A stretch of DNA of 64,000 nt from Syntrophales bacterium (lineage in GTDB: Bacteria; Desulfobacterota; Syntrophia; Syntrophales; UBA2210), in the NCBI GenBank assembly GCA_963666365.2, contig CAXXNF010000001.1:1-64000 (forward strand), given 5' to 3'. The position numbers and the translations under genes were made by a program. Below, in pieces: positions 3,001 through 32,531 of the stretch. The notes below the pieces were generated by a model that was given only the letters and a program-made list of their open reading frames with translations, was not told the origin of the DNA and did no database searches. Position 1 is the stretch's first letter, and every line of letters starts with the position of its first letter.

Positions 3001-3830
3001 GAGACCGGCGCTCGCCACGTCCGCCTTCAACGCCATGTAGTTCACGTCGTCGGTGGTCACTGCGGTGCCCTTGGTGTCCCCCCACCATGAGGATGCCGAA
3101 GTCCACGCCGGTGAGTGCGAAGCCGATGCTCCCCACGCCGGCGAAGGCACTATTCACATGACCGCCCACTTCCAGGTAGCTGACGTTGGTCAGGGCGGTG
3201 GAGGTGTGCGTCGATGCGTCGGTGACGGTGAAGCTCCCTGTGGCCTTCTTGAAGGCCAGGCTCCCGTCGAGGCTGACGAAACCGAAGACGTCCAGGGTCA
3301 GGTTCGTCATGACCGCCAGCAGCACCCCCTCGTCGCCGTCGATGTCAAGCACCACGTCGGCCGTGTCGGGGCCCGTGGCGATGGTCACGCTGGCCGCGTT
3401 GGTGTCGGTGGTGTTGATCGTCTCGTCGCTGTTCACGAAGTCGAGGACGCTGTTCGGGGCCGTGAGGCTGCTCGTCTTGTTCACCTCTACGGATAAAGTA
3501 TTTACTTCAGCGGTGAGGCCGTCGATCCCTACGAGACCGGCGCTCGCCACGTCCGCCTTCAACGCCATGTAGTTCACGTCGTCGGTGGTCACTGCGGTGC
3601 CCTTGGTGTCCCCCACCATGAGGATGCCGAAGTCCACGCCGGTGAGTGCGAAGCCGATGCTCCCCACGCCGGCGAAGGCACTATTCACATGACCGCCCAC
3701 TTCGAGGTAGCTGACGTTGGTCAGGGCGGTGGAGGTGTGCGTCGAGGCGTCGGTGACGGTGAAGCTCCCTGTGGCCTTCTTGAAGGCGAGGCTCCCGTCA
3801 AGGCTGACGAAACCGAAGACGTCCAGGGCG
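1..3830 (-). repeat. Tandem coding repeat, 531-bp (177-aa) unit, 7 full copies plus a partial
   Basis: The anchor gaagacgtccaggg recurs at about 3814, 3284, 2752, 2221, 1690, 1159, 626 and 92. Unit: LDVFGFVSLDGSLAFKKATG...VLLAVMTNLT. Confidence 0.97.
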
Positions 3831-6800
3831 ACGTTGCCGGCTGCCTCGATCAGCTCCCCTTCCGCGCCGTCCATGTCGATTGTAAGGCTGGTCCCCGGAC
3901 CGGTCAGCACCTCCAGGTTGCGCGCGGCAAAGTCGATGACCTGATCATCTGCCTTCCCTGCCTGATTGATCTTCACTGAAAGAGACGTGGATGAAGCCGT
4001 AAATCCGGTAATGCCTGTCAAGGCAATGCTGTTTGCCGTGGCCTGCAGTGTCGTCCATGTCCGCGTTATATCCGCTCGGCTGGTGAACAGCACCAGGGCA
4101 AAGTCAACTTCTTCCAGGGAAAGGCCCAGCGCGCTGTCGCCGCCGCCGTTCACTCCCGCAAAGGCGTTCAATCCGCCACCGCCCACGGCGAGCATGTCGG
4201 TGACGACTTCCGTCGTCCCGTCGGCAAGCACTACCGTCTCGCTGGATTTCTCAAAGGCCAGATTGCCTTCAAGCATGAAGAATCCGAAAAGGTCCAGCGT
4301 CATGTGACCGTATGCGCGGATCAGATCGCCCTCGAGGCCGTCCATGGTGAGCGTCAGGGTCGTGGCGGGACCGGTTGTTATCTCCATGTTCTGAACGGCA
4401 AAATCCACCACCAGGTTCGGATCGGCATCGGGAACGATATCCGGACGCGCTATCGACTCGCCTTTGGCTTCCACTGTCAGTGTGGCCGAGGCCACATCAG
4501 GCGTCGCCGTCACTTCCAGCAGCGGAAGGTCCGTGCCACCAAGGCTCCCGCCGAATTGAACATCCCATACCCCGGAAGAAATGTAGGTCGCGGTGAACTG
4601 CGCACCCGCAAGGTCTGTAAATGCCGCTGCCAGGGCTGACTGCACGTCCGACGCCGTGGCAGTAAATCCGATCGCCATCGTCGTGCGGGTCATGCTGTCG
4701 TATGTCAAACTCAGGGTGAACGTGCCGCCGCCTTCTGCTTCTATCCGCACGCGCTGCACTTCGTCTACCGCCGCCGTGCTGTAGGTTGTGCTCTCCGTTC
4801 GCGTCAGGCCGCGTTCAATTACCAGCAGCGTACCCGTTACCGGCGCCACCGTCGTGGCTACCGTCATGCGCGCGATTTCCTTCCCGGTAAAGCTGCCGCC
4901 AAAGACTACATCCCATATTCCCCCGGCTGAGCTGCTTACGGTGACACTTGCCCCTGCAATCGTAACGAAGGCCGTGTTCAGCGCATCCTGAACCTGCACC
5001 GCCGTCGCATCGAAGGACAGTGACGCTGTCGTATAGGTTGTCCCTTCGTATGAAAGCGAAAGGGTGAAGTCGCCGGCAGATTCGGATTGTACCCGCACCC
5101 GCTGCTCGGCCGATACGTCGGTCACCGTCTCGGTAGTCGTCTTCGACTGCCCCTCAACCGACGTCGATACGACGACCGTTACGTTGCTCGACGATACCAC
5201 GGTGATTTGCGGAACATCCTGATAGGCGAGTGCACCGGTAAAGGTCACGAAGTAACGGGGCGCCGCAGATGTTGATTTCTGATCGAACTCTACATAGACA
5301 TTCCCCTTCTTTATCGTCGTTAAACTCTCCAGACCCGCCTGCAGTATCGCCCGGTTATAGGTGGGACTGTTCACCGAAAAATCGAGAAGTCCCGTGGTCA
5401 GACCGTTGAACTCCAGCTCATAACGGGTGTTCGTGCTCCGGAATCCATCAGAAAAAGATATGATCTGACGCTCGCGTACATTGGCGCCCGTCGTCTCCGT
5501 GCCGGTCACCACCTGCCCGCCGGCCACTATCGTGGTGACGGATGCCTCAACTCCGGGTGTGCGCACCGACAGCTGCAGGTCGCTCAGATCCTTACCGGCA
5601 CAGTCGTTTATAAACTCAATCGCATAACCGGCGGCACGGGTCCCGCTTACGGTGACATTGCCCGCACCTACTGCCGCAAAACCTGAAAGCGCTGTCGTCA
5701 GCAATCCGGAAAGCGCCGCATCGCTCGTACCCGCCGCTATATCAACGCTCCGTGTCTCTCCCCTCAAGGTAAAGACCAGAGCACCTGTCTGGATATCGGT
5801 CTCCAGTGTGAGTTTTGTGTTTACCGTAACCGGCGTCAGCTCGACATCTGTCTGCTCAGGCACTCCGGCCACACGCTCGATTACCGCCGTGGATACCTCG
5901 GGGCTCTCCGCCCGCACCGTCAGGCCGCTCAGGTCCTGACCAAGTAATGTGTTATTAAAGGTGAGAATGAACCCTTCCGCCCGCGTACCGCTTATTGTGA
6001 CATTGCCCGCTCCCACTCCGGAAAGACTCTCGAGAGCGGATCTGAGCTTCACCCACATTATTGTCGTCGTATCCTCAGCCGTTACCTGCACTTCGGCTGT
6101 CTCGGCGTCAAGCCCGAAAACAAGCGTTCCCACCGTCAGGTCCGTCTCAAGCTTAAGCACTGTCGCCGTCAGCTCCGGATTCTGCGCAACCGGCGTCCCG
6201 GCACTACCGATGTTGCGGTTGATCTCGACGGTCAGGGTATCCACTTCCACCGTCAGGCCATCGACGCCCACGAATCCCAAGGAACCGACCTCGCTCTTCA
6301 GGGCCATCCATTTGCGCGCCGGATTCGACGAATCCGTTATGAGCGCCAAGGCAAAAGCGGCATCGGTCAAATCGAAACCAAGAGCGGACTCAGTGCCGCC
6401 GTTGAGACCGGCAAAGGCGGTCACTTCGCTCGCGCCGATTGTGATCAGATCGACGTCAACCGAACTGCCGTCGGAAAGACGAACGCTGCTGCTGGAACTG
6501 ACAAAGGCAAAGTTTCCGGACACGAGAAAGAAATCCGCAAGCTCGATCTCTACCGTCCCCGATGCCTGGATCAGTTCTCCATCGGCGCCGGCCATCTCGA
6601 ACGTTACGGTGTCTTCTGGGCCTACGGAGACCGCCAGTGGATCAGCCGAAAAATCTATTACCGTACTGTCGGCGGCAGACAGATTCAGCTCAATGCCGAA
6701 TGTGGTGACGCTCAGCGTCAAACCGGGAATGCCCACCACCGAGGCGCTGCCCACCGAACCCTGCAGCGCCGTCCAGCTCCGCTGCGAACCGCCTTCTTCG

Positions 6801-9800
6801 CTCATCAGTGCAAGCGCAAAGTCAACTCCTGAAAGCTGAAGACCTATCGCATGGTCAGTGCCGCCGCTGTACCCGGCAAAGGCCGAAAGATCACTCCCTC
6901 CGATCGTCAGCAGGTCTGCGGTAAGGGCACTCTCCCCTGTAGGCTTCACCGATTGGGTATCCATATGAACCGCAACGTTACCCGAAATCTGCACGAAGCC
7001 GCCCACGGACACATTGGCATTACCGATAGCTACCTCCAGAAGCGTCGATGATGCTTCCATCGTACCGAAGGTATAGACAAGCTCACATGCCGCTATTGAA
7101 ACACCGGTATATGCGATACCTGTTTCGTTCAGCCGAACCGATACCGTGTCTGCACTGAGGGTTACCGAATCTCCGGCAACGGCATAAAGCGAGCCGGATG
7201 CTTCAAGCACACGGGTCCCGCTGTTTACCACCAGACCCAGTGAAGCGTTTTCTACACCGACCGCAAAATCACCGGCACCGAGAAATGCACGGGCGCTTTG
7301 TGCAATCACATGCATCGTGTCGCCATCTGCTTCAAATCCGAAATCACCGGCAATCTGCAAACCACCGCCCAGACTGGCTTCGAGACCCGTCACCGAAACG
7401 CTCTTTAATGTTGAAGAGGCGGGGAGGGAGGCGAAGGTATACCGCACATCTCCCACCGATACTGATTGACCCGTATACAACTCGCCGGTGGTGTTGTAGC
7501 GCACCAGCACCGATGCAGCCGTCATAGAGGCGAATCCGCCGCCCACCATCGAAAGGGCGCCCGAGGCCTCAAGGGCTACGTTGCTGTTCTCATCTATTAC
7601 AAGACCCAGGCTTGCGCTGCTGACACCGACTGAGAAGGAACCGGCGTTCACCGATGCAGCCGCATCAGTGGCCACCGCCTTCACAACCGAACCCTCCTTC
7701 AGAAAGCCGTAATTTCCGGAAAGAGAGAATATCCCCCCCAACTCGCAGTCAAGACCGGTTACGTAGACACCGCGGATTGTCGTAGATCCGGGAAGTTCTT
7801 CAAAACCGAAGCTTGTACCTCCCGCTGATATCTCCTGACCGATATAGGGAATACCCGTCTCGTTCAGAAGCACCTTCACCTTGTCGGCGCTGCAGGCAAA
7901 GCCGGCGCCTTCCAGGACAAGGGTCCCGTCAACCTCGAATGCCTTTGTGCCGTCTCCCCTGATCACAAGACCGAGGGAACCGTTGTCAACCCCTACCTTG
8001 AAATCACCTACACTGAGAATCGCTTCCGCATCCGACGCAATAATTTGAACATCCGAACCGTTCTTTTCAAAATCAAAATTGCCGCCGATCAAAAATACGC
8101 CACCGAACTCGGCCGTCAATCCCGTGATCGATAGGGCCACCAACGACGTCGATGCAGGAAGGTTCGTAAAGGTGTAGCTCACCTCGCCCACCGATACTGT
8201 CTGACCAGTATAGAGTGCACCGGTGGTGTTGTAGCGCACCAGAACCGAGGTCGCCGTTACCGAAGCAAATTCTCCGCCCGAGATCGCGAGGGCGCCCGAG
8301 GCTTCCAGGGCGACGGCGCCCGACTCGTTCAACACCAGGCCCAGCGTCGCCGCACTCACTTCGACGGAAAAAGATCCCGACTGCAACGTGGCGGTCACAT
8401 TCCGTGCCCCTGCCCGTATCACCGTGTCGGGACTGGTGCCAGTCTTTTCAAATCCGAAATCCCCGGTTACCGATACGAATCCGCTTATGCCCAGGCTGAT
8501 CCCGGTTCCCTGGATCACGATGATTTCCGTTCCATCGTCAAAGGAAACCGTTACATCGCCGCCGGAGGTGGTGACCGTCTCGTTCACCGCGGCGCCGGTC
8601 TTGTTCACTTCGGCAGCGAGGGTCGCTGTAATGCTGAAGTTATTATAGCCGACAAGTGTACCGGTCCCCGACGCGTACAGCGCATAGACAGAAGGAGTAC
8701 CTTCAATGATTACCAGACCGAGCGTGGCGCCTGTTATTTGAACCCCCCGGGCATTCTCGGTACCGTACCCGGTACCCATAAAGATGGTCACATCGGTGGC
8801 CCCGGCCACAATTTTCATATTGGGAGAAGCGCCGGTTTTTTCGAATCGAAACGATCCGGAGAGAACCGCAAAGGAATCGATCGTAAGAGAGGCGCTCCCG
8901 GCGATCCTCACAAAGGCGCCTTCCGTGAAATCAAGAGTTGTGGTCTGACCACCCACAGTGATCGATTTGCTGACCGCCCCACCGGTATTATTGAACTCCG
9001 CAGCCATGGCCGCCGTCATGGCAACCCCGGAAAGACCGCTGAGACTCACCGTCCCGTTTGCCTTGCCGGCCGTCCCCGACGCGGTCATAAAGAAGGCGCC
9101 GGCGCCTTCCGTCAGACTTACCGATGCGCCTCCGGCGGCGAAGACCATATTCACATTTGCTGCAGCAACACTGTAGTCGTCACCGCTTTTTTCAAAGGTA
9201 AAGCTTCCTCCCATGCTCTGACCAAGTACGGTCACCGAACCGGTGATGCCGATGGAAACTTCCGACGTTTTGCCGGCAAACCAGGCGAGCAGTTCGTCCA
9301 TGGTCGAGGGGGATCCTTCGTCAACGGCGATATCCACATCGCCGCCGGGCGTCTCGGCCACTTCGAGCATGTAGGCGCTGCTATCCGCGTCAAGGACCGG
9401 CTTGAAGTAGAGACCACCGCCGATCTCCAGTCCGGTGAAGGATGCAAAATCACCCGTCACAGACCCGAAGGTCATGAAGGTGAAGGTCTGTCCGAGGGTG
9501 GGGGTATAGGTGTCGAGCAGGTCTATGGCCAGGGCACCGTCGAGGGAGGCGAGATTCGCCACATTGATGACGTCGTAGTCAGTACCGGAGAGGGGGCCCC
9601 ATATCTCGATCAGCAATGTCCCATCGGATAACTGGGTGAAGCTGTCAACGTTGTCACTGCCGGGAGAATGTCCGGGACTGTAAATACCTTCGTTCAGGAA
9701 GGACTCGTAATCCGAATCGGTCTCTTCGGCGACACTATATATAAGGGATATGATTTCCGATGAACCGGCAGGGTAAAAAGTCAGGCCGGAAGATTCCGCC

Positions 9801-10792
9801 TTCAGGCGCCTGAGTTCTTCCAGAGAAATCAGGCCGTCGGATCCGGTCAATGCCTCGACATCCAGGAGGCTCTTCGCCGTCAGATTCGAGCCATCATCGA
9901 AGTAAACGGTTGTTTCGGCTGACAGGCTATAGATGGCAAGATAAAAAGAGCCATCAACATCGGGATCGAGTCCGATGGCAAGGGACGCGTCATAATTGAG
10001 CGACAGCGCTGTAACTGAATGATTTTGCGCAGCATACAGCAAATCAAGCGCCGCACACAGTTCAGACGCCGACCCGAGATTAATAGCGGAACCCAAGGCA
10101 ACACTCATATGCACACTGCCGGATTCGCTACTCAATTCTCCGGTTACATTGAAATATGTATCGCCCTGCGCCTCGTTTTGCTGCAAAAGGGCGAGAAGGT
10201 ATTCAAGATTTTGCGCGTCGGGGGGGTCCAGTGCATCCCCGTAGTATTCATACACGGGGGTCATAAGTCGAGTGTCAAGAAGTTCATAAAATGCGATGCC
10301 GGTGGCTCCGGTATCGGTCGTGAGGCTTTTGAAAAGGGCGAAGATTTCTTCTTTTTCGACTTCAACCGCCCTATCCGCAAGCAGATCAAGCCCCTCAACG
10401 AGGGCATCCGTATCCAGTGAAGCGGCAGCAACTGCCGGTGTCGAGTCCTCTTCCGATCCATCGTCGGTACTGGAATGTTCAAGATCGCTCTTGTCAGTTG
10501 ATGCTGAATCGGAGAGTAGATCCAGATCAGCCAGATCCTGGAACAGGTCGTCGTTTCCTTCCCCAAAACCCTGAAAAAAAGTGTCCGATGAGGCCGTTGC
10601 CGAGCTTCCGTCGGCAGTGAGCACAATCTCTTCAACGGCTGAGGTGGATGCAATCCCTTTGGAAAGAAGATCTTCCTGATCGATCTGCCAGGCCGCGGCA
10701 GCCCCCAGCAAGGGATCCGCAGAAAGCATCACCCGCTGCTCGAGCGCTTCAAGCTCAAATAACCTATCCGGATCTATCCGCGACATCGGCAT
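1..10792 (-). CDS. Giant repetitive extracellular protein with N-terminal LEPR-XLL motif; 3' end outside the window; broken by single-base insertions
   Basis: ORF 2975-10792 (2605 aa) starts MPMSRIDPDRLFELEALEQRVMLSAD (LEPRxLLSA-type motif). It is Gly/Ser/Thr/Ala/Val-rich with beta-strand repeats. The same repeat reading continues in ORF 688-3150 and below after +1 insertions at about 3080, 783, 630, 547, 451, 120 and 70. Confidence 0.9.
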
Positions 10793-11253: not shown

Positions 11254-13245
11254 TCAGAATTGTGCCGACGTTCCTGTAAAAGACAGCGCCTCTTCAAGCC
11301 ACGTATCCATCTTGAGCACATTCCGTCTCTGGCGGAACGCCATACGCTGGGCCGCTCTCTGGGCCTGCAGCACAGCCTGATGGGCCAGGAGCGCTCCACC
11401 GGGAATTCCTGATTTCACGGCGACCGCCAGTTGCCGTCTCAGTACGGCAGGAACAAAACGCCGGATAAGCTCGTCATCGGCGCTCATATAGGCCTGCGCG
11501 CTTCCCTTGTCTCCCTGGCGGGAACAGCGGCCGAAGAGCTGCCGATCTATTCTTCCCGACTCATGTCGTTCCGTGGCGATTACGTGCAATCCTCCGAGTT
11601 CAGCGATTCCCCGTCCCAGTTTTATATCGGTCCCTCTGCCCGCCATGTTCGTCGCGATGGTAATGCGCCCATACTCCCCCGCAGCCGCCACGATGCGGGC
11701 CTCTTCCTTGTGTCTGACTGCATTGAGAAGATTGAATTCCAGACCTTTGGCCGTGAGCATGTCCGCAAGCCGTTCACTGGCCTTCACGCTGCGCGTTCCC
11801 ACCAGAATCGGTCGTCCGCGGGCGTGCATATCACTGATGTCATCGACAATAGCCCGCCACTTTTCCTCCTCGCCGGCATAGGTCCTGTCGGGGAATACTT
11901 CTCGTATACAGGGCCGGTTTGTGGGTATCGCCATCACCGGCAGGCCGTAAATATGCCAGAACTCGCCGGCGGCCTCCTTTGCGGTACCGGTCATACCGGA
12001 GAGCTTCCTGAAAAACCGGAAGAATCTCTGAAAACTGAGCCGTGCAAGGGTTTCGCTGGGATTGCTGACTTCAAGGCCCTCCTTGGCCTCCACCGACTGG
12101 TGCAGTCCATGCCTCCAGGTCCTGTTGGCCATCAATCTGCCGGTAAACTCGTCAACGATGGCCACCTTGCCCTCCTGGACTACATACTGCTTGTCGCGAT
12201 CGTAAAATTCTCTGGCCGTCAGCGCCTGGGTCACCAATTCCTCGCGCCGGGACGCTCCCTGCCATATGGCCGGCATCAGAGCGGCCATATCCTCGATTTT
12301 CCTTTCCCCCTCCTTGGTAAGCCGTATTTCACGGTACTTCATGTCCACCTTGTAATCAGCGTCACGCACCAGACGGGAACAGACCTGATAGGAGGAGGCA
12401 CAGGCATCCACAAGAGGCTGATTTTCCTGCGCTCTTGAAATGATAAGGGGCGTTACCGCCTCGTCTATCAGCAGACTGTCCGCTTCGTCCACGATCACCG
12501 TATCTATTCCCCGCTGGACAAGCCCCTGAAACGCCCGAATCCGCGGCTGCAGTGCATAGCGAAGCGCCCTTCGTTCAGCATTCTGGTACCGTCCCAGTAT
12601 GATGCGGTCTCTCAGAAAATCAGCCACCAATTCTTTGCTGGTAGTGTAGACGATCCCCCTGCCGTAGTTCTCCTGCCGTTCATGCGGGTCCATCGTTCCG
12701 GTCACACTGCCGACGGTGACGCCGCAATAGGAATAAAACGGCCGCATCTCTACTGCATCGCGGTCTGCCAGATAATCGTTTATCGTCACGATATGACAGG
12801 GTCTTCCGCTCCATCCGGCAAGCGCGGCGGCAAGTGAGGCGGTCAGGCTCTTTCCTTCACCGGTCGCCATTTCGATAAGATAGTCGTCATGGAGTGCCAT
12901 GGCCCCCCAGACCTGCACCATGAAGGGCCTGAGTCCCAGCGTGCGCTCCGCCGCCTCCACCAACAGCGCAAGGGATTCATCCACTATATCATCGGAAGTC
13001 TTTTCAATGCGTCTGAATTTTTCTGCAAGTTCCGCCAGACGGGAGGAAATTCTGCGGTCCGCTACATTGCGCATCACCTTCGACTTCTCCAGTATCGCCT
13101 CGGCCCTCATGCGGTATTTTCGAAAACGGTCGGGCAATACCCTGTACTTTCCCACAAGCCCGTAGACTACGTTGTCCAGCCCCTGGTGAAGTTTTGCGGG
13201 GGTGACAATTTTGGTTCGACGGTAATCCTGAGCCGGGATCATCAT
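11254..13245 (-). CDS. Accessory SecA-like DEAD ATPase, C-terminally truncated (663 aa)
   Basis: Motifs MATGEGKS, VTINDYLADRD, IVDEADSLLIDEA.TPLIIS, TNMAGRGTDI and RHESGRIDRQL.GR..RQGD.GS. ATG at 13245 overlaps the upstream stop codon (ATGA). Confidence 0.93.
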   Translation of the reverse strand: MMIPAQDYRRTKIVTPAKLHQGLDNVVYGLVGKYRVLPDRFRKYRMRAEAILEKSKVMRNVADRRISSRLAELAEKFRRIEKTSDDIVDESLALLVEAAERTLGLRPFMVQVWGAMALHDDYLIEMATGEGKSLTASLAAALAGWSGRPCHIVTINDYLADRDAVEMRPFYSYCGVTVGSVTGTMDPHERQENYGRGIVYTTSKELVADFLRDRIILGRYQNAERRALRYALQPRIRAFQGLVQRGIDTVIVDEADSLLIDEAVTPLIISRAQENQPLVDACASSYQVCSRLVRDADYKVDMKYREIRLTKEGERKIEDMAALMPAIWQGASRREELVTQALTAREFYDRDKQYVVQEGKVAIVDEFTGRLMANRTWRHGLHQSVEAKEGLEVSNPSETLARLSFQRFFRFFRKLSGMTGTAKEAAGEFWHIYGLPVMAIPTNRPCIREVFPDRTYAGEEEKWRAIVDDISDMHARGRPILVGTRSVKASERLADMLTAKGLEFNLLNAVRHKEEARIVAAAGEYGRITIATNMAGRGTDIKLGRGIAELGGLHVIATERHESGRIDRQLFGRCSRQGDKGSAQAYMSADDELIRRFVPAVLRRQLAVAVKSGIPGGALLAHQAVLQAQRAAQRMAFRQRRNVLKMDTWLEEALSFTGTSAQF

Positions 13246-15398
13246 ATCTGGTACCTCTTCTGAAGCAGCTGAAGCAGCTTTCTGCCCCACTGAACCAAAA
13301 GGGCCTCGGAATCAAGGGTGAATCGCAACTTGCCCGATCTCCCGTGCACAAACATGACCTTATTCTGCGGCGCCACTGAGGCATATATCTGAAAAAAGGG
13401 TTCCGCAGCCTGAATGCCCTTTTCGTCGGAGGGGGACACCGCCACCTGCCCTCCCCCGCGCCAGCCCAGCGCTGCCGAGGGAAGTTTCTCGAACTGAAAG
13501 GGTATTATCTGAATGTCGGTGACTTCCAGATTTTCACCCACCTGCCCATAGAGGCGCACTTCCGCCTTTCGTATCTGATCGACGAACAGGTTGGACGCCT
13601 CTTCCTGGGACACTACCGCCGAGAAACGAAAGACCTCCGGGTCGACGATTTCACCGAGCATTGTGCCCCTCGGCAGCCACGACCCCACCATCTCGGTACT
13701 TCGCGGAGATACCCATATGCCGCGCTGTCTGGCACGCACAGTAAGCTCTTCCACCTGCCGCTGAAGGTTCTGCAAATTCGCTTCGATTGTTTCCAATCGT
13801 TTATTGATGGGCTCTATATCGGCTGATCTTTCCGTACGCGCCCGCAACATCATCGCCAGCGTCTCCTCCCGCTGCGCCCGGACTTTTTGAATTTCCAGTT
13901 CCAGCTCCCTGTCTTTAAGCAGCATCAGCGGCATCCCCGGGGAAACCTCCGTTCCCGAAGGCGCCGACACTTCACGCACATAGCCCGGCGCATCGTTCAC
14001 CACCCGCATGTAATTGACCGATTCGAGCACCCCGGGGGCCCTGAAGCGATTCGGCGCCGGGAATATGAAAAGAAGACCGAAAATCAGGCAGAAAAGCAGC
14101 AGGCTCACCCCGACCGCCCGTATACGATTCCTGGCCAGTTTGGGACTGGAGGCAAGATAGACCACAAATTTGTAGAGCGGTACCACGCCCCAGGCAAATA
14201 CGCAGAAAAAGGCCATTATGAGACCGAGGATGAGAAATTTATCGGCCACAAAAAGGATAATGCCGGTAAAGACCACCACCTTGTAGATGCCGCTCAGGAT
14301 TCCGAAGACGGTCAGCCAGAAGGCCTCCTTCCCCGTTTCCGCCGGGCTCTGTGAATCGCGGCAGCCGAAGAGGTAATACTCGAAAAGATGCCGGAGATGA
14401 CGATTTGATCTGGTGCTTAGATTAGGGATATCCATAATATCCGACAGGATATAATAGCCGTCGAACCGAAGCAGCGGGTTCGCGTTAAACAGCACCGTTG
14501 AGACCGAAGCGACTACCATCATGTTATAGGCGATGCTGTGCAGGATGCCCGGTGCGGAATATGCCCAGTAAAAGGCGGCCAGCGCCGCAACGAATATCTC
14601 GGCAATCATCCCGGAGGCGCCTACAAGCGCCCGCTGCCACCGACTGCGAAAGGACCAGCTGGAAGTGGCGTCTATATAAGGCAGGGGGGTAAAGACCAGC
14701 AACATTACCCCCATGACATGCACCTCTCCCCCGAATCGTTTGCATACGAAGGCATGACCGAATTCATGAATCGTTTTTACGACAACCAGTCCGACATAGA
14801 GCAGGGGAAGATTGGCGGGCACCAGTATGCCTTGGAATTGTGAAGTGGCGGCATCAAAATTGTCGAAGACCACCTTCAGCGCGGCAGCGACGACCGCAAG
14901 CCAGACAATCGCGCCTGCGGGACCCACAAGAAGCTTCAGCAGCAGCGTGATGCGACGGAGCATGAACTCCGGATCGAGCAGGGGAAGCCGGAAAAACATA
15001 ATGCTCAGGAACTTGGAACGGACCTCCCGGCTGCGGCGCTTTTTGTAGCGCTCGAAGAGTTTGGCACTGTCCGCGGGCACATCAAAATAGAGAAGGTTTG
15101 CGAAATAGAGCTGCGTCAGCAGCTGGAGCACGTCTTCCTGACCGGGCGCCTTGTCCGGGCTCCGACTGAGGCATTCCTCCCACACTTCCTCCACCGTGCG
15201 GGTTCGGCGCAGCCTTATCACAAATTCATAGGCTTCCGGGCGAAGGCGGAAATACTGGTTGTTAAAGGGATCGTACAGCACATACCAGATTTCCCCCCTG
15301 AAGAGCTGCTTTCTCGCCTTGACCGTCGGACCGAGACTGATCCTGAGTTTGGCGATGCGATGCCAGGACTCGCTGAATGTTCTCCCGGACTTTGCCAT
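13242..15398 (-). CDS. PqqD-like N-domain + M50 (site-2) metalloprotease membrane domain + HlyD/MFP domain fusion
   Basis: HEFGH and NANPLLRFDGYYILSD M50 motifs with several TM helices. The C-terminal part has a lipoyl/coiled-coil MFP pattern. The N-terminal YVLYDP...YFRL...TVEEVWE...LLTQLYFANLL resembles a winged-helix RRE. Confidence 0.85.
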   Translation of the reverse strand: MAKSGRTFSESWHRIAKLRISLGPTVKARKQLFRGEIWYVLYDPFNNQYFRLRPEAYEFVIRLRRTRTVEEVWEECLSRSPDKAPGQEDVLQLLTQLYFANLLYFDVPADSAKLFERYKKRRSREVRSKFLSIMFFRLPLLDPEFMLRRITLLLKLLVGPAGAIVWLAVVAAALKVVFDNFDAATSQFQGILVPANLPLLYVGLVVVKTIHEFGHAFVCKRFGGEVHVMGVMLLVFTPLPYIDATSSWSFRSRWQRALVGASGMIAEIFVAALAAFYWAYSAPGILHSIAYNMMVVASVSTVLFNANPLLRFDGYYILSDIMDIPNLSTRSNRHLRHLFEYYLFGCRDSQSPAETGKEAFWLTVFGILSGIYKVVVFTGIILFVADKFLILGLIMAFFCVFAWGVVPLYKFVVYLASSPKLARNRIRAVGVSLLLFCLIFGLLFIFPAPNRFRAPGVLESVNYMRVVNDAPGYVREVSAPSGTEVSPGMPLMLLKDRELELEIQKVRAQREETLAMMLRARTERSADIEPINKRLETIEANLQNLQRQVEELTVRARQRGIWVSPRSTEMVGSWLPRGTMLGEIVDPEVFRFSAVVSQEEASNLFVDQIRKAEVRLYGQVGENLEVTDIQIIPFQFEKLPSAALGWRGGGQVAVSPSDEKGIQAAEPFFQIYASVAPQNKVMFVHGRSGKLRFTLDSEALLVQWGRKLLQLLQKRYQI

Positions 15399-15399
15399 A

Positions 15400-17274
15400 T
15401 CACCACCACAGAAGCATTCGGAAAAAGTCTACCGTGCGGTGCGTCACAATCCACAGCACATTTCTCTTTCCCACGTTAATCTTTGTGATGCCGGTCATAC
15501 CGGGACGCCACCAGGAAGGAATGTCCTGCTGGACCTGTGCCCTCACAAGAAATACACTCCCCTCTTCCTTGGCCAGCGCCACCGGGTCGATACGTTCCAC
15601 CACAATGGGAAACTTCAGTTCCGGCCGGCTGACAAAGGCGATCTCTCCATCGGAACCGACGGAGATTTCATGTATATCGCGTTCCTTGACTTCAATTTCA
15701 GTATAGAGCATCGCCAGGCGGGCCACCTTGAACAGCACATCCCCTTTTCTTACCGGGGCACCGAGCAGCTCTTTGAGATCCCCTTCCACAATGATCCCAT
15801 CGAAGGGCGTTTTGATCTGCGCATTGGCAAGATGATACCGTACGAGGGCCAGCTGGGCTTCCGCCTGATCCGCCAGGGCCCGGGCGATTTTCATATCGGC
15901 AAGGGCGTTTTGGGCCCGGGCCTTTTCGGCTTCACGGATGTATCGATGCTGATTGGCCAGGGCGTTGGACTCCTCCAGAAGCAACTCGCGGGTATCAAGA
16001 GACAGCAAGGGGTCGCCCTTTGCAACCACATCGCCGACCCTCACATGGACATCACTGATATAGCCTTCGAATGGCGCCGGCAGATAGGCAAGATCATCGG
16101 TCTTGACGATGAAATTCCCTTCCACCCGATAATTCAAATGTCCGAAAAGCATGAAGGCGAGCGCAACCGCCAGGATCAGTCCCAGCAGTTTCGGAAATGT
16201 ATGCTCCACTCCCAGGAACCATGCACACCCTTCCCGGACCGAGGATACCGCTCGCGCGCCGAACCATCGATCGTGTTTCTTGAGATCGGACATCAGTCGC
16301 GCCGTCTGATCGCACATAACCCGCAGCCCCCGCACATCCCATTCGGTAAAGGGCTCGGTGCGTTCGCAACTGAGTACCGCCACAGGTTCCTCATCTGCTC
16401 GTATCGGCAGGGACACCATATGTTCAGTGCCTTGGGTCCGGCAGTAGGACTCGTGATCCCTAACGACCGTAAAGGCGCCTTCGGGTCGGGGATAGAGGAC
16501 CTCCTCGTCCTGGTCGAAGGCCTCTTCCATGGCCGCTTCCAGCCCCTGCACGGAATCCATCTTCTTTTCGAACTGCTCCATGTGGCTGATGGCCTGTACC
16601 CTGATATAGGCATCCTTAACCCATCCCAGAGCCACTCTCTGGCAACGGTACCGGGCGGCCACCTCGTTGCACAACGCCATCGCAGCCCCCATGAACTTCT
16701 TTTCCCTGTTGAGCACCGCCATGAGATCGAGGGCTTCCGAGAACAGCACCACGTCATTTCGGGCCTGCTGCGCCATGCGGTTCATCTGATAGGTGGTAGG
16801 AATGCCGGCCACCAGTTGGAGCCGCAGGAAGAGTTCTTCCAGAATATCCTCTCCTGCCCCTTCAACAAAAAACACAACCACGCTTCGCCGTCCCTCGTCC
16901 TGAATTTCAAGCCGAAGGCCCAGGGTGACGCCGGAAGGACTGCCTGCGCCGGGCACACCCGACGTTGTCCAGGCCCTGCCGTCGGCGCCGGATTCATCGG
17001 CGATCTGCTCTACCACAGGCCCCAAACCCAATTTGCGCACTTCACCAACGCCGCCTCTGGGCCAGAGAGAGACCGTTTTCCAGGCGTCTTCTTCATCCCC
17101 CCGGATCAGGAGAAATCCAAAACGGGCCCCTGCCAGCATGGATGCCCCTTCCAGAAAGGCGGGCCAGAAATCCTGCGGCTGACCCTCGAAATGCCGTAAC
17201 TGCTCCAGCGTCTGGAGCAACTGATCCATTCTTTCTTGAGGGTTTTCATATTCTCGTTGGCTGTGCAACATCAC
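15400..17274 (-). CDS. GAF domain + HlyD-family membrane fusion protein
   Basis: GAF-like RVALGW...AAMEEAFDQ...VSLPI...VAVLSCER, one TM helix, then APFEGYISDVHVRVGDVVAKGDPL and WWRPGMTG. Confidence 0.85.
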   Translation of the reverse strand: MMLHSQREYENPQERMDQLLQTLEQLRHFEGQPQDFWPAFLEGASMLAGARFGFLLIRGDEEDAWKTVSLWPRGGVGEVRKLGLGPVVEQIADESGADGRAWTTSGVPGAGSPSGVTLGLRLEIQDEGRRSVVVFFVEGAGEDILEELFLRLQLVAGIPTTYQMNRMAQQARNDVVLFSEALDLMAVLNREKKFMGAAMALCNEVAARYRCQRVALGWVKDAYIRVQAISHMEQFEKKMDSVQGLEAAMEEAFDQDEEVLYPRPEGAFTVVRDHESYCRTQGTEHMVSLPIRADEEPVAVLSCERTEPFTEWDVRGLRVMCDQTARLMSDLKKHDRWFGARAVSSVREGCAWFLGVEHTFPKLLGLILAVALAFMLFGHLNYRVEGNFIVKTDDLAYLPAPFEGYISDVHVRVGDVVAKGDPLLSLDTRELLLEESNALANQHRYIREAEKARAQNALADMKIARALADQAEAQLALVRYHLANAQIKTPFDGIIVEGDLKELLGAPVRKGDVLFKVARLAMLYTEIEVKERDIHEISVGSDGEIAFVSRPELKFPIVVERIDPVALAKEEGSVFLVRAQVQQDIPSWWRPGMTGITKINVGKRNVLWIVTHRTVDFFRMLLWW

Positions 17275-17365: not shown

Positions 17366-18241
17366 TTACTCACTCTTTAGATCGACTTCCATAGTCGCCG
17401 CAGTGCCCGGTCGGACCGCATTGTCCATGTTTTCAAACTCCACTTTCACTTCCATCAGACCGCTCGCCGAGTCAACCAGCGGGGACACGAATGAAATCGT
17501 ACCCTTTTTCCGGACGGACGTGCCACCGGTTCCGATCACAAGATCGACCTGCTGCCCGACTTTGAGAAATCTTCCGATATTTTCCTCCAGGTTGCTGACA
17601 AAGCGTCCGCGGCCGGTATCCACCACACGGACAAGCGGCTGGTGCTCTTCGAAACTCTCCCCCTCATCATAAAACAGTGTGATCACCGTTCCATCTATGG
17701 GGGACCGAAGATTTCGCTTTTCCAGCGTCTCCACTGCTATTTCGTATTCAATTTTCTCGCGTTTTTCCGCGGCGGCAAGCCGATCTCGTTCCGCGACGGC
17801 CAATCGCAGTTCCAATTCCTGTTTTTTCAGTTCTTCTTCACTGACGGATTTCGTCGATTTAAAGAGCATGAGCGTCGCATCATATATTTCCTTCAATGTC
17901 CGCGCGCGGGCCTGGGCACCTTCATATTCCGACTTGCTCTCCCAGACAAGCTTGCGCCGCGCGACTTCCAGTTCCTCTGTGCGCTTGTCAAGATGGAGAA
18001 TCCGCTGACCCTTGCGCAGGCGATCCCCCTCTTTGACGGATATGGTGGACACTATGCCGGGAACGGACAGACTCAATGTCACATCGCTGATCGGCTCGGT
18101 AATCCCTGATATCCCGATCGGCTCCCGGGCAATGCATTCCCCGCCACAAGAAATTGCGATACTGCAGGCGAGGACACACAGCAACACAGCACGCACAGAA
18201 AAGCGCCTTCCTGAAATTCCACCTTCTTTGCTCATTATCAC
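17366..18241 (-). CDS. RND/HlyD-type periplasmic adaptor (MFP)
   Basis: N-terminal hydrophobic segment, VPGIVSTISVKEGDRLRKGQ, coiled coil, LRSPIDG and VRPG motifs. Confidence 0.88.
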   Translation of the reverse strand: MIMSKEGGISGRRFSVRAVLLCVLACSIAISCGGECIAREPIGISGITEPISDVTLSLSVPGIVSTISVKEGDRLRKGQRILHLDKRTEELEVARRKLVWESKSEYEGAQARARTLKEIYDATLMLFKSTKSVSEEELKKQELELRLAVAERDRLAAAEKREKIEYEIAVETLEKRNLRSPIDGTVITLFYDEGESFEEHQPLVRVVDTGRGRFVSNLEENIGRFLKVGQQVDLVIGTGGTSVRKKGTISFVSPLVDSASGLMEVKVEFENMDNAVRPGTAATMEVDLKSE

Positions 18242-19806
18242 GACTCCTTGCTGAGATCTATTCCATGCATCTGGAGCAGCGTGCCTTTGACTGCCTCGAG
18301 CGCCACCAGCGCCTTTTCGACATTGACAAGACTTTCCAGATAATATTCCTTCGCCCTGTTCAGCTCTTCGTCCCGCTCCAGAACCAGCCTGCTGTTACTT
18401 TTTCCTGCACTGAGACGGGCCAGTTCGACTTCAAGCAGCCGTTTGTTGATCTGTACCGCCGACGCATAATTTTTCCCCTGCGCCACGGCATTCATTACAT
18501 TTTTAATCGACGTGTCAACGGCATTGGCAAGAGCCACTTCCGTTGCCTTCAATTCCAGCAGTATCTGCGCCTTTCTTTTTTTCGCCGCCGCCAGTTCGCT
18601 TTTTGTCTTCTTGCCCCCCATGAGAGGGATGCTGAGTTCAAGACCGACAGACCAGCTTTCATAGTCCATGCCCTTGGCCACATCCAAAGAGTCAATGGGC
18701 CCGTCGTTGTCGCGATCGAGCCCGTTGACGCCATAGCTGGCCTTGAGATCCAGCTGAGGCCATCGCTGATTTTCCGCGTAGGCGATACGTATGCCTTCCC
18801 TTTCCACCTTCATGAGTGCGGAAAGATATTCGGGGCGATTTTTTATGGACTTCAGATAACTGCTTTCGTACTCGACTGCCACCTCCCTGGCGGCGAGATT
18901 GTCCATGGCGATCACCATGCCGTCCATATCTCCCATGGGAAGAGACAACAATGTCTTTATATTGTTCACCGCCGCCGTCAGCTCCTGGCTCGCGGCAATT
19001 TCCAGTGATTTTCTTAGGGCCAGGCCGGCCTCCGCTTCGAGCACCTCGGTCTCGGCCATTTTCCCGGTCCGAAATCGCTCTTTGTTGTCTCGCAGGATAT
19101 CTTCGGCAATTCTGAGCGATTCGCGCCTCACCTTGAGCTTTTCCTGGGCCAGACACAGATTCCAGTATGACGAGGCGGCTTCGGCCACCACCTGAAGCAG
19201 CTCCCTTCGGTACCCCTGAAGGGAGATTGCGGATTCCTTTTCGGCCACACGGATATTGGCCATGGTCGTATCGACGCCGGCGTTTTTCAGGAGCGGCTGC
19301 ACGACGGTGGTTCCTACAAAGGTCTGGTACTGAGAATCGTAGGCATAATTATCCATCAGACTGTTTTGCAGCCGTTTCAAAGAATAGCCAAACCGCACCT
19401 GGGCGCCGGTGGGAAGCACCCCTTCGACGGCGGCGTTATATTCGTTATTCCGCTTCCAGTAATTATCGTTGCCGGAATCCATGAAACCGATGCTTGAATA
19501 ATCTTCCACTGTTTTGGGAATGTGGCTTTTATCATGAAGGTAGGATGCCACGAAGCGAGGCTCGAAAATGGACCCGGCGCTTTTCACGGCATCCCGGCTG
19601 ATGTCCCATTCAAGTTTCTGGTAGCGAATCCTCTCGTTCCTCTCGCAGACTCGTGCAATCAGCTCGTCGAGACTGAGATGCCAGTCCGCGGCGCCGATCC
19701 TCCCGTGCGTCGCAGGATCCTCCCCCCAGACAAGGCTGAAGGGAGATAGGAGGGCGGCCACTACAAAGACAATCACTGCACAGGGCCAAAACATTCTGCC
19801 TTTCAA
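18238..19806 (-). CDS. TolC-family outer-membrane channel
   Basis: Signal peptide, QPLLKNAG, AYWNL-like helix, RPEY and WPQLDL motifs, with two OEP-like repeats. Confidence 0.88.
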   Translation of the reverse strand: MKGRMFWPCAVIVFVVAALLSPFSLVWGEDPATHGRIGAADWHLSLDELIARVCERNERIRYQKLEWDISRDAVKSAGSIFEPRFVASYLHDKSHIPKTVEDYSSIGFMDSGNDNYWKRNNEYNAAVEGVLPTGAQVRFGYSLKRLQNSLMDNYAYDSQYQTFVGTTVVQPLLKNAGVDTTMANIRVAEKESAISLQGYRRELLQVVAEAASSYWNLCLAQEKLKVRRESLRIAEDILRDNKERFRTGKMAETEVLEAEAGLALRKSLEIAASQELTAAVNNIKTLLSLPMGDMDGMVIAMDNLAAREVAVEYESSYLKSIKNRPEYLSALMKVEREGIRIAYAENQRWPQLDLKASYGVNGLDRDNDGPIDSLDVAKGMDYESWSVGLELSIPLMGGKKTKSELAAAKKRKAQILLELKATEVALANAVDTSIKNVMNAVAQGKNYASAVQINKRLLEVELARLSAGKSNSRLVLERDEELNRAKEYYLESLVNVEKALVALEAVKGTLLQMHGIDLSKES

Positions 19807-19919: not shown

Positions 19920-20699
19920 CTATTTGAGTTTTGCAAGGTTTTCCTTTGCGATGTCAACAAGCTTTTTGCCTGTTGCCCCTGTCTGATTGCTTACAAAGGC
20001 AACATCCTCCGGATTCAGCGCAATCAGTATTTCGTAGGTGCTTCGTGCAAGATCGGCGCGCTCCGTGTTCTGATATACCACACCCAGGTTCAGAAGCGCA
20101 TAGGGGTTCTCCGGGTTTTTTGACAGTGCCCTCAGGAGATACTTCTCCGCTTCGGCATAGTCATTTTGCTGGAGGGCCTGGAACCCCAAGTTGGCCAGCG
20201 TGACGTCTTCCGGCGCCGGTACGGAATAGGGGGGGAACTGGGCAAGAATATCCTGTACCGCCTTCCTCAGTTCGCCGGAGGCCATATCGACATGAATGGA
20301 ACCCGATGCGGTGCCCCGCCAGAGCAACTCTTTACTCTCAGCCCGATATATATTAAGGGTCAGCATGCTGAGACGATAACTCAACGGGGTATAATCTTCA
20401 TACTCATACTTGAGCAGGATGTTAAAATCCGGTTTTTCCGACGACTCGCGAAACCCCTTCTGACTGAGTTGATGGTTGGCAAGAACCCTCACATTTTCAT
20501 CAACGAGCCTGTCCTGCCTGGAAAGCGCCACAATGGACGAAGGTGCATCCCACACATAGCACTTCAGTCCCGAAAAATCCTGGTTGAGGCCGTAAAAATG
20601 GTTAATGTCAGCCTTTTTCGCACAGCCTCCCGCCATCAGAAGGATAACCAGAACCATGATCGCCGGCACACACCGGGCGCCTATATTGAAACCTTTCAT
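19920..20699 (-). CDS. Lipoprotein, DUF4136-like domain + TPR
   Basis: Lipobox AGGC, LSQKGF...PDF...LLWRGTA, and a C-terminal TPR (ALSKNPENPYALLNLGVVYQ). Confidence 0.7.
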   Translation of the reverse strand: MKGFNIGARCVPAIMVLVILLMAGGCAKKADINHFYGLNQDFSGLKCYVWDAPSSIVALSRQDRLVDENVRVLANHQLSQKGFRESSEKPDFNILLKYEYEDYTPLSYRLSMLTLNIYRAESKELLWRGTASGSIHVDMASGELRKAVQDILAQFPPYSVPAPEDVTLANLGFQALQQNDYAEAEKYLLRALSKNPENPYALLNLGVVYQNTERADLARSTYEILIALNPEDVAFVSNQTGATGKKLVDIAKENLAKLK

Positions 20700-30800: not shown

Positions 30801-32531
30801 GCAAGCACCCAGAACATCACCTATGACGCCGCCGGCAACGTCACTCGCAGGCAGTACAGCACGGGGCTCGATCTGGCCTATAGCTACGACGCCCGGAACC
30901 GTCTCCTGACAACGAATGACCTTTCACTGACACGGGACACCGAAGGACGGATTACCGCAACGGCAGATGGCGAAGCCCTTTTCGGAGCAACCTATGATGA
31001 CGCGGGCCGTCTCAAGACGGCCACCTATAACAGTGTCTTTACCGTGACCTACACCTACGATGTGGGTGAAAACGGCACGGGCCTGCTCACCCGGATCAGC
31101 GACGACCTGACCAACACACAAATAACCTTCACCTATGACGACGATAAACGCCTGACCGCCACAGGCCTACCAAACGACAAATCAATCACACAGACCTGGG
31201 ATAAGGCGGATCGCCTTCTCCGTCTCCAATCGGGAGATCACGTTGATCTTTCATTCACCTACGATACGGGGGGGCGCATAACCGCCATGAACATGACGGC
31301 GCCCCTTACATTGGAATCATACATGCCCACGGTAAAACGCGCCTTGAGCTACGACGCCGCCTCCCAGATCAGCACCACCGGCTTCAATTACGACGCCCGG
31401 GGCCGCATGACCGCAGCACCGGGGTGGGCCTACGGCTGGGACGGCGCCTCGCGCCTGACCACAGTCGGCGATGCGATCCTGGCATATAACGGTATGGGAG
31501 ATCTCAGAACGCGCACCAGCGGAGGCGCAACCTCCCATTTTTACACCAATCATGCCATCGGCCTTTCACCGGTTGTCGCCGAAAAGAACGATACGACCGG
31601 CCTGATTACCCGCTATTACGTGTGGACTCCCGAGGGGCGTCTGCTCTACATGATCGATACTACCGACGGCAACAAGGTCTATCTCTATCATTTCGATCAG
31701 GCAGGAAACACCCTTGCCCTGACCGACGCCGTCGGCGCCGTCGTCAACGCCTATGCCTACGACCCCTATGGCCGTTTGCTCGCCCGCACCGGAACCGTTA
31801 CTCAGCCTTTCACGTTTGCCGGGGCTTGGGGCGTCCGCCAGGAAGGCGAAAGCGGCACGCTCTATCATATGGGCGCCCGTTATTACGATGCGGAGAAGGT
31901 GCGTTTTATCACGCCTGAACCTCTGTGGCCGCAGTTGGAAGAACCCAGGGCCGTCAATCCCTATCAGTATGCTTACGCCGATCCTCTCAGATATATTGAT
32001 CCGACAGGTCTTGATGCCGCATCGGACAAACTTGCGGATCGTATCTTTTATTTGCGTACAATGATATTCATTATCAAGGAGAGGGAAAGGGAGAGTAAAC
32101 TACAGGAAGCGGCCAATAAACTGGCGGGAAAATGGTGGAGGCCGATAGTGCAAGCGAAACGCGAGAAGGAACTGCAAGCGGAACGTGAGCAGAAAATGAA
32201 AGAACTTGCAGCGAAACTGAATAATGATCTGATGGGGTTGATCTTGCGGGAACACGCACGGGTGCGTCCGGCGGAACTGGAAAAACAAATTCACGATAAC
32301 GAGCAGTGGCTCCCAGGCGCGTGGAACGACTTTTTGAAAGGCCTCGCATTGCGGGATCGAATGCTCGCCGATATAGAGGCAAAACGCAAGGCGGGCAAGA
32401 AATTGGAACGTGGGGAGCTGCATGAATTGAAAAATGTTATCATCGGTCTCGCAATGCTATTGAGTAATATAGAATCGGCATTGCGCGAGATCGATCAGTC
32501 ACGGGCGGAACTGAATGAAATTCGACAATGA
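27818..32531 (+). CDS. Secreted RHS/YD-repeat protein: signal peptide, DUF1566, Ig-like domain, RHS core, helical C-terminal domain; apparent +1 frameshift at GGGG 27973-27976
   Basis: ATG 27818 gives MWQQ...FAMA-IPLFDDNGNGTVSDRQTSLVWQQG, which joins DAQNSGVRYTWQESL.YC...DWRLPTIDELQS. Many YD repeats follow, then ARYYD...NPYQYAYADPLRYIDPTG. Confidence 0.88.

Follow-up and report, generated by a model that had tools for sequence, protein, structure and literature searches.

How bacteria export proteins of 5,000 to 25,000 residues is largely unexplained, and LEPR-XLL is an orphan motif to which no machinery has been assigned. Type I secretion systems (T1SS) for RTX proteins and giant adhesins, such as HlyB-HlyD-TolC and LapBCE, use a C-terminal RTX-type signal, and in the peptidase-containing ABC exporters of bacteriocins a C39 protease fused to the transporter reads and cuts an N-terminal leader. 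Here, we describe a minus-strand operon in a 64,000-nucleotide stretch of a Syntrophales bacterium genome (GCA_963666365.2, contig CAXXNF010000001.1, positions 1 to 64,000; hereafter the window). In this order, it encodes a TolC-like outer-membrane factor, a 291-residue adaptor, an adaptor with a GAF domain, a 718-residue protein in which a PqqD-like RiPP recognition element (RRE; RiPPs are peptides that ribosomes synthesize and that are modified after translation) is fused to an M50 protease and a HlyD-type adaptor, and a truncated SecA paralog, after which a giant open reading frame (ORF) begins with a LEPR-XLL motif. The operon resembles a T1SS in its adaptor, its TolC-type duct, and its large, repetitive, acidic cargo, and it resembles the bacteriocin exporters in that an N-terminal leader would be read and cut by a protease joined to the transport apparatus, here of the M50 rather than the C39 family. 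Unlike a T1SS, it has no ABC transporter, three adaptors instead of one, a SecA-like ATPase, and, as we propose, an N-terminal signal. The RRE-M50-adaptor fusion is probably the substrate-reading and -processing subunit of a TolC-linked, ABC-transporter-free export machine for LEPR-XLL proteins, which are often giant.

The gene set was already known. Working from genomes, Kamneva, Poudel and Ward described secondary SecA_DEAD proteins that lack the wing and scaffold and whose genes neighbor those for Peptidase_M50/HlyD, HlyD, and GAF/HlyD proteins, in some cases also OEP, with no ABC transporter (PLoS One, 2015; PMC4452313). They suggested that the SecA-like protein is the ATPase and that the M50 protein may be a pore replacing the ABC transporter, called the biological role of the module completely unknown, and named Methylobacterium extorquens AM1 as a carrier. 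The window operon, which has SecA_DEAD without SecA_SW beside M50/HlyD, GAF/HlyD, and HlyD genes and no ABC transporter, matches the gene set and gene order given in the available portion of that article; it is a member, and one more ordinary member, of an already published module. Unlike the present analysis, the same portion of the article names no cargo and no leader, and the word PqqD does not occur in it.

RRE-M50 fusions are also in print. In the daptide leader peptidase MpaP/DapP, an RRE is joined to the N-terminus of an intramembrane site-2 protease, and daptide leaders carry the conserved motif ELExMEAP (bioRxiv 10.1101/2023.03.08.531785). In the numbering of the accessible part of that preprint, the motif runs E(-8) L(-7) D(-6) P(-5) M(-4) E(-3) .. 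P(-1) and thus abuts the cut; in an alanine scan, processing by MpaB, another RRE protein, was lost with L(-7)A and with M(-4)A. As far as that text describes it, MpaP/DapP shares with our fusion the RRE-plus-M50 architecture and a leader resemblance, ELExMEAP to ELExLE(P/Q)R, in which E(-8)..P(-1) aligns in register with E13 L14 E15 A16 L17 E18 Q19 R20 of the window's giant protein. Compared with MpaP as described there, the fusion has an additional adaptor domain of ~270 residues and its cargo would be giant proteins rather than peptides of ~25-40 residues; the partner ATPase is SecA-like in the window operon, in place of the ABC transporters of daptide clusters.

Two further systems bear on the cargo. 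LEPR-XLL (NF012209, 'LEPR-8K') is a 24-residue N-terminal motif on the Chlorobium chlorochromatii giants Cag_663 and Cag_665, both of which are expressed and transferred to the partner cell without known transport signals (bioRxiv 10.64898/2026.03.19.712371). That preprint proposes C-terminus-first export by SapC/TolC/HlyD, and M50 is not mentioned in its available text; Cag_663 and Cag_665 share the LEPR-XLL head with the window giant, and the export direction proposed for them is opposite to the N-terminus-first direction we favor. Omnitrophota giants embed a SecA_DEAD domain without wing or scaffold, which is proposed to export the very protein that contains it (West-Roberts et al., bioRxiv 10.1101/2023.11.21.568195). 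There the SecA domain lies inside the giant protein and in the window it is a separate gene, and M50, HlyD, and TolC do not occur in the accessible part of that paper. Literature searches found no paper linking an RRE, an M50-adaptor fusion, and LEPR-XLL, and on LEPR-XLL they found passing mentions plus the Chlorobium preprint. New here are the LEPR-XLL link and the reader domain; the gene set and RRE-M50 fusions were published before.

Domains of the fusion

The fusion (13242-15398, minus strand, matching its ORF exactly) begins with a domain at residues ~18-105 (15084-15347) for which sequence profiles and a structure prediction support a PqqD/RRE-type fold. First, Pfam PqqD (PF05402) matched the fusion alone over residues 39-102 with an E value of 0.002 and 18.8 bits (gathering score 23.4). 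In a six-frame genome search, PqqD scored 23.0 bits at the fusion and 23.5 with neighbours in frame, which was flagged as over the cut-off, and 14 of 36 family members matched at E<=0.01, the best at 1.7e-5. Second, when 177,635 PDB sequences were searched with a profile of the domain alone, built from 55 loci, three matched at E<=10, each a PqqD/RRE protein: PqqD (3g2b, 0.0085), the PqqD part of PqqCD (5sxy, 0.28), and the lasso-peptide RRE TfuB1 (6jx3_B, 1.3). A profile of the full-length family had no PqqD among its best 60 PDB matches, which were mostly adaptors. Third, an AlphaFold2 model of the domain (predicted local distance difference test score 85.7; 92-97 over residues 11-100) placed strands at residues 27-33, 36-43, and 48-52, followed by helices at 54-61, 69-79, and 87-99, giving the three-stranded sheet and three helices of a predicted winged helix-turn-helix. 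Compared with 48,161 chains by VIA-align, this model matched TfuB1 with its leader best (Z 9.6; root-mean-square deviation 3.0; 84 of 85 residues aligned). Further matches included TbiB1 with leader (Z 9.4), PqqD (8.6), and the PbtF RRE (7.2), with MibB, MccB, the sactipeptide synthase 5wgg, the cyanobactin heterocyclase 4v1t, TbtB, NisB with leader, SuiB, and TglHI lower down. Because winged helices from outside RiPP pathways score alike, the fold alone is unspecific, and it is the sequence signal that points to PqqD. Finally, R51 and Q87 were invariant among 55 RRE sequences, and L94, Q96, and L97 were kept in at least 90%. By the alignment and the model, R51 lies on strand 3 and Q87 on helix 3, which we take to be where solved RREs hold their leader.

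The genome contains two more PqqD-family matches, one in a 105-codon ORF (49.2 bits; G000:C2:880672-880860, L088) and one in a 491-codon ORF (21.1 bits; G000:C1:1061451-1061588, L090).

Hydropathy, the positive-inside pattern, and matches to Pfam M50 and daptide_HExxH delimit an M50 membrane core at residues ~152-450 (14049-14945). It carries the zinc-binding and catalytic motif HEFGH at residues 211-215 (14754-14768) and NANPLLRFDG, an NxNPxxxxDG motif with the Asp that is the third zinc ligand, at residues 305-314 (14457-14486). Pfam Peptidase_M50 (PF02163) scored 27.3 bits on the fusion against a cut-off of 27.2 and was found in 34 of the 36 family members, whose identity to the window fusion ranges from 31 to 83%. 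In the alignment of these sequences, H211, E212, N305, N307, P308, and D313 were invariant and H215 was kept in at least 90%. The NCBIfam model daptide_HExxH (NF041824) matched residues 46-406 of the fusion, spanning the RRE (3.1e-50, 171.4 bits), and matched all 36 family members; YydH/LiaK matched 33. The fusion did not reach the daptide equivalog cut-off of 300 bits, and Pfam detected no daptide-cluster aminotransferase, oxidative decarboxylase/dehydrogenase, or methyltransferase in the scanned ORFs of the operon and its surroundings. Judged by these profiles, the fusion is a relative of the NF041824 daptide metalloprotease family and not a member, and the nearest curated relatives of its M50 core are RiPP leader peptidases, not enzymes of the RseP/SpoIVFB type.

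The remainder of the fusion (residues ~451-718; 13245-14048) is a HlyD-type adaptor domain. With the family profile, residues 437-684 matched MacA (2e-9), EmrA (2.8e-8), the HlyD-type structure 8dck (2.2e-7), and MexA (8.7e-5) in the PDB. Within the family, HlyD_3 matched 22 of the 36 members and HlyD_D23 matched 15, and NCBIfam RND_mfp matched the fusion alone at 4.9e-8 with 32.3 bits, under its cut-off of 94.9. These matches assign the domain to the HlyD/MacA/EmrA type of adaptor, and hydropathy suggests that it is periplasmic. The fusion has eight hydrophobic stretches; we read the one at residues 226-244 as re-entrant, because positively charged loops flank it on both sides, which leaves seven transmembrane helices. 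Mean loop net charges over the 36 sequences were +4.8, +1.1, +1.7, +0.8, and +3.2 for the predicted cytoplasmic loops and -1.8, -0.6, and -0.3 for the predicted periplasmic loops, as the positive-inside rule requires of a protein with its N-terminus inside and its C-terminus outside. In this predicted topology, the cytoplasmic side would hold the RRE together with the two catalytic motifs, and the adaptor would be periplasmic.

The domain assignments made in an earlier reading of this DNA (the original prediction) held. Its PqqD-type winged helix of about 110 residues was borne out by the recurring PqqD signal, by PDB profile matches that were exclusively PqqD/RRE, by the AlphaFold2 fold, and by VIA-align; the HEFGH and NxNPxxxxDG motifs that it had called intact are so; and the membrane fusion protein that it had placed after the protease is there, in the form of the adaptor matches over residues 437-684.

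Elsewhere in the genome (G000:C2, about 1842201-1843910; L005 1441-3150, minus strand) lies a second M50 protease of 569 residues with an HEFGH motif (Pfam M50, 5.6e-11), which is 30% identical to the core of the fusion and has no adaptor domain. It adjoins a YcaO-domain ORF (5.8e-31), pointing to a RiPP-type cluster in that part of the genome.

The M50 core might take part in the export of LEPR-XLL proteins without cutting them, with the RRE binding the leader merely to target or dock the cargo and the M50 domain serving for passage through the inner membrane or for clearing stalled substrates. The published suggestion that the M50 protein is a pore, as given in the available text of Kamneva et al. 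(PMC4452313), points this way, as do the facts that the Pfam-scanned ORFs of the operon include no polytopic membrane protein other than the fusion and that no cleavage site is known in the leader. We nevertheless consider this unlikely, although it is the alternative that survives best. The six catalytic-site residues listed above are invariant in 36 sequences that extend down to 31% identity, which argues for selection on catalysis, and the nearest curated relatives are leader peptidases.

LEPR-XLL leaders and the genomes that carry them

The probable cargo is a giant LEPR-XLL protein whose gene lies on the minus strand after the operon; its first 2605 codons occupy 2975-10792. The ORF starts MPMSRIDPDRLFELEALEQRVMLSAD, and its leader motif, FELEALEQRVMLSAD, covers residues 12-26 (10715-10759). 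NCBIfam LEPR-XLL (NF012209) matched residues 12-33 with 28 bits against a cut-off of 17, and scored 35.9 bits for the giant ORF in the genome search; Pfam detected no other family in the ORF at E<=0.01. Residues 27-140 contain 27 D/E and 2 K/R. The first ~140 residues hold no stretch hydrophobic enough for a Sec-type signal (maximum 19-residue hydropathy 1.08). In an alignment of 18 leaders, E15, E18, and R20 were invariant, L17 and L23 were present in at least 90%, and conservation ended after about position 27; the LEPR-XLL leader reads F-x-L-E-x-L-E-P/Q-R-x-L-L-S-A-D. Forty further leaders from other genomes all show LE(P/Q)R, with P in 37 and Q in 3 as counted by eye; two of these (L122, out of register, and L147, outside the anchor pattern) also show LEPR.

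The giant gene runs toward the start of the contig, is longer than 3,300 codons, and is incomplete here. It continues in another frame for 820 codons (688-3150, minus strand). The frame change sits in a near-identical tandem repeat whose unit goes on across it, and a second break occurs near the end. Short-read contigs of three public runs from two studies lack one base at window position 3078, in the zone of the frame change, so the break may be an assembly error, or those contigs may come from another copy of the repeat.

In the host genome (4.0 Mb on 2 contigs), LEPR-XLL heads three ORFs, of 9652, 3849, and 2605+ codons, and there is a single close copy of the fusion. The ~13 kb fetched upstream of the 3849-codon gene contain housekeeping genes only. 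With three such ORFs, a single close fusion copy, and the 3849-codon gene unlinked to it, one machine would serve unlinked cargo genes. Very long ORFs also lie ahead of the 9652-codon gene (L153 and L151, G000:C2:32500-65200) on its strand: there is one with at least 2225 codons and then one of roughly 7,500 codons that starts near L153 position 9603, with a first GTG that has no LEPR motif; a 3-kb stretch of short broken ORFs separates the two.

Could another part of the machine read this leader? The SecA paralog retains the preprotein cross-linking domain (SecA_PP_bind, 3.3e-28), the ~360-residue region ahead of the adaptor domain in the GAF-adaptor holds a ligand-binding GAF fold, and the evidence tying the RRE to the motif is indirect. 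LEPR-XLL proteins might accordingly be exported with one of these two regions as the reader, leaving the RRE to bind, for example, a small regulatory peptide or a part of the machine. Two observations make this improbable: daptide RRE-M50 fusions, as described in the accessible text on them, act on a leader with a similar motif, and the RRE residues of the canonical groove and the core of the leader are both invariant across phyla.

Four betaproteobacterial loci (L027, L035, L037, and L051) have leaders of the form LE(D/E)R..LLSAEP instead of LEPR..LLSADP, and their RREs have ALTQ at the start of helix 3 where others have APxQ. Because this co-change is confined to one lineage, we do not count it as evidence and regard it as a lead for co-variation only.

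The fusion and LEPR-XLL go together across genomes. First, among 201 genomes of the same order, with the fusion called at E<=1e-30, the fusion was present in 20, LEPR-XLL in 18, and both in 16. LEPR-XLL occurred in two of the 181 genomes without the fusion (G129 and G155), both times as a weak partial match at a contig end. The two genes lie near each other on one contig in G014, G068, G083 (twice), G085, and G099. Second, the profile of the fusion family matched 57 of 201 Planctomycetota genomes, and all 22 genomes with LEPR-XLL were among those 57 (0 of the 144 others). When the 57 genomes were split post hoc at 720 bits, LEPR-XLL was present in 19 of 22 genomes at or above that score and in 3 of 35 below it. 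Third, we found 80 related loci in Verrucomicrobiota, Planctomycetota, Desulfobacterota, Beta- and Gammaproteobacteria, Nitrospira, Spirochaetota, Fibrobacter, Myxococcota, and others. A GAF-adaptor gene lay immediately upstream of the fusion in 58 of the 64 loci with at least 2 kb of upstream flank, and a SecA paralog immediately downstream in 60 of 68. The fetched flanks of 17 of the 80 loci contained a LEPR-XLL ORF (hidden Markov model score of at least 16 bits; next best, 7), and the whole genomes of the first 50 loci had LEPR-XLL in 44, in ORFs of up to 24,360 codons, compared with none of 14 control genomes. The association thus holds in two phyla and across many more.

Some distant paralogs of the fusion adjoin large ORFs with related heads. 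At 5 of 20 fetched loci, these ORFs start with variant leaders that the NCBIfam model missed at its threshold: LLLEPLEQRIMLDA (twice), SLEERILLSG, ELEPRVVLTA, and MEERIVLDG. These five loci (L092, L094, L102, L104, and L108) belong to Planctomycetota, and some have no SecA paralog within 20 kb.

The same surveys bear on the idea that the fusion is a RiPP-type leader peptidase and exporter for a small, unannotated bacteriocin-like peptide and that the giant genes are its neighbours for some other reason. All characterised relatives (daptide MpaP and YydH/LiaK) process small peptides, as far as the available accounts of them extend, and a LEPR-XLL ORF was in view at only 17 of 80 loci. However, a small-gene search of the 461 bp that separate the SecA paralog from the giant ORF found no ORF of at least 30 residues on the operon strand, and Pfam found no RiPP-modifying enzyme in the operon or in neighbouring ORFs scanned up to 32.5 kb. 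Moreover, the leader motif heads ORFs of hundreds to 24,360 codons, and it is with LEPR-XLL proteins that the fusion co-occurs genome-wide. We regard a small-peptide substrate as very improbable.

Proposed mechanism of export

In the mechanism that we propose, the cytoplasmic RRE (residues ~18-105) would use the groove between its third strand and third helix to capture the leader of nascent or unfolded cargo, and the wingless SecA paralog would provide ATP-driven pushing of the unfolded chain. The chain would enter an inner-membrane assembly in which the M50 core combines with the membrane anchors of the fusion, the GAF-adaptor, and the 291-residue adaptor, and the periplasmic domains of the three adaptors would bridge this assembly to the TolC-like duct. 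The M50 site, facing the cytoplasmic leaflet, would remove the leader, and by analogy with daptide precursors the cut may fall at or just after LE(P/Q)R.

Part of this was anticipated by the original prediction. The short N-terminal motif and acidic linker that it described at the start of the giant gene were confirmed by the NF012209 match and by the excess of acidic residues after the leader. Its broader proposal, that RiPP-style leader recognition and cleavage has been co-opted to export a giant protein through an N-terminal signal, was strengthened in part, by the RRE fold, by the kinship with leader peptidases, by the co-occurrence and synteny with LEPR-XLL, and by the lack of a Sec-type signal in the first ~140 residues; leader binding, cleavage and its site, N-terminus-first transport, and a motor role for the SecA-like protein are steps that we infer. 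It had overlooked that the likely ATPase is the truncated SecA paralog next door and that the gene set, in the accessible text of PMC4452313, has been in print since 2015.

Several observations count against this mechanism. First, the association has exceptions: 4 of the 20 order-level genomes with the fusion (G103, G008, G037, and G049, of 50 to 230 contigs each), 35 of the 57 Planctomycetota genomes with it, and 6 of the 50 locus genomes show no LEPR-XLL, and a cargo gene adjoins in only 17 of 80 loci. Related genomes are also not independent of one another, and independent events are therefore fewer than the co-occurrence counts imply. Second, the window's own cargo gene carries frame breaks. 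Third, the assignment of the N-terminal domain has weak points. The Pfam PqqD score of the fusion alone falls under the gathering score (18.8 against 23.4 bits), winged helices from outside RiPP pathways equal RREs in VIA-align (NovN, Z 9.4; Rv2067c, 9.2; PKMT2, 8.6), and Foldseek gave no PDB match at E<=0.001, with RRE chains at E values of 0.035-0.09. Fourth, the topology of the fusion was derived from hydropathy and charge only. Finally, the daptide alanine scan, in the available text, concerned MpaB and not the RRE of the protease itself, and an eight-residue resemblance between daptide and LEPR-XLL leaders could arise by chance.

A different role for the protease, as a signalling site-2 enzyme that cleaves a membrane regulator (regulated intramembrane proteolysis) to control expression of the giant genes, would suit the site-2 protease family to which Pfam assigns M50 and the GAF sensory domain encoded next door, but it is highly implausible, because the conserved core contains no gene for an anti-sigma factor, sigma factor, or regulator, a fusion to a TolC-docking adaptor coupled to a SecA-like ATPase fits transport, and the closest curated relatives are leader peptidases and not RseP/SpoIVFB-type enzymes.

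Taken together, the elements of the export mechanism would make LEPR-XLL the sorting signal of a distinct pathway, in which the RRE-M50-adaptor fusion reads the leader and clips it at LE(P/Q)R, the wingless SecA drives N-terminus-first and possibly co-translational export through three adaptors and TolC, and subfamilies of the fusion read variant leaders. We put this full combination at a little short of an even chance. Within it, these machines would form a family of exporters, addressed by leaders, that handle the largest proteins of bacteria. If it is true, protein secretion has taken its address reader from a principle of peptide recognition known only in small natural-product peptides, a paralog of SecA powers a secretion system in place of an ABC transporter, and an N-terminal signal would let export start before synthesis of the giant protein ends. 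Carriers among the related loci include the cultured, non-pathogenic bacteria Vreelandella aquamarina, Marinobacter suaedae, and Pseudomaricurvus alkylphenolicus; because the module is present in such bacteria, the hypothesis is directly testable.

Other genes of the operon and its surroundings

The remaining operon genes fit the published module. The truncated, or secondary, SecA paralog (11254-13290, minus strand; 678 residues as listed) matched SecA_DEAD (1.5e-89) and P-loop_SecA (2.2e-57) in addition to SecA_PP_bind. Its likely start is the first ATG, at 13245, which overlaps the TGA stop of the fusion as ATGA. Pfam detected neither SecA_SW nor SEC-C in it, and the housekeeping SecA elsewhere in the genome has both; the two are 44% identical over 566 residues, and the genome has one SecA paralog besides the housekeeping protein. 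Upstream of the fusion, the 624-residue GAF-adaptor (15400-17274, minus strand) matched GAF (1e-7), HlyD_D23 (1.4e-17), and HlyD_3 (4.6e-14) in Pfam; its adaptor domain begins at residue 383 by the HlyD_D23 match, and a single base separates its TGA from the ATG of the fusion. Next come the small HlyD-type periplasmic adaptor (17366-18241, minus strand; 291 residues; Pfam HlyD_D23, 6.8e-16; HlyD_3, 1.4e-11), counterparts of which were found in most related loci, and the first gene of the operon, for the TolC-like outer-membrane factor (18238-19806, minus strand; 522 residues; Pfam OEP, 5.2e-39), whose stop overlaps the start of the 291-residue adaptor gene.

Across the operon and the neighbouring ORFs scanned with Pfam (688-32531), no ABC, RND, or MFS transporter domain was found, and hence no dedicated ABC transporter of the HlyB type that marks a T1SS. 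A scan for promoters and terminators was uninformative, with 9 promoter-like sites where 6.2 +/- 2.5 were expected and 7 terminator-like sites where 11.3 +/- 3.4 were expected.

Just upstream of the TolC-like gene and on the same strand is a gene for a 259-residue protein with DUF4136 and TPR (19920-20699, minus strand). Farther away, at 27885-32531 on the plus strand, a 1548-residue RHS-repeat protein with an N-terminal Lcl C-terminal-type domain and DUF6531 is encoded, unrelated to the operon.

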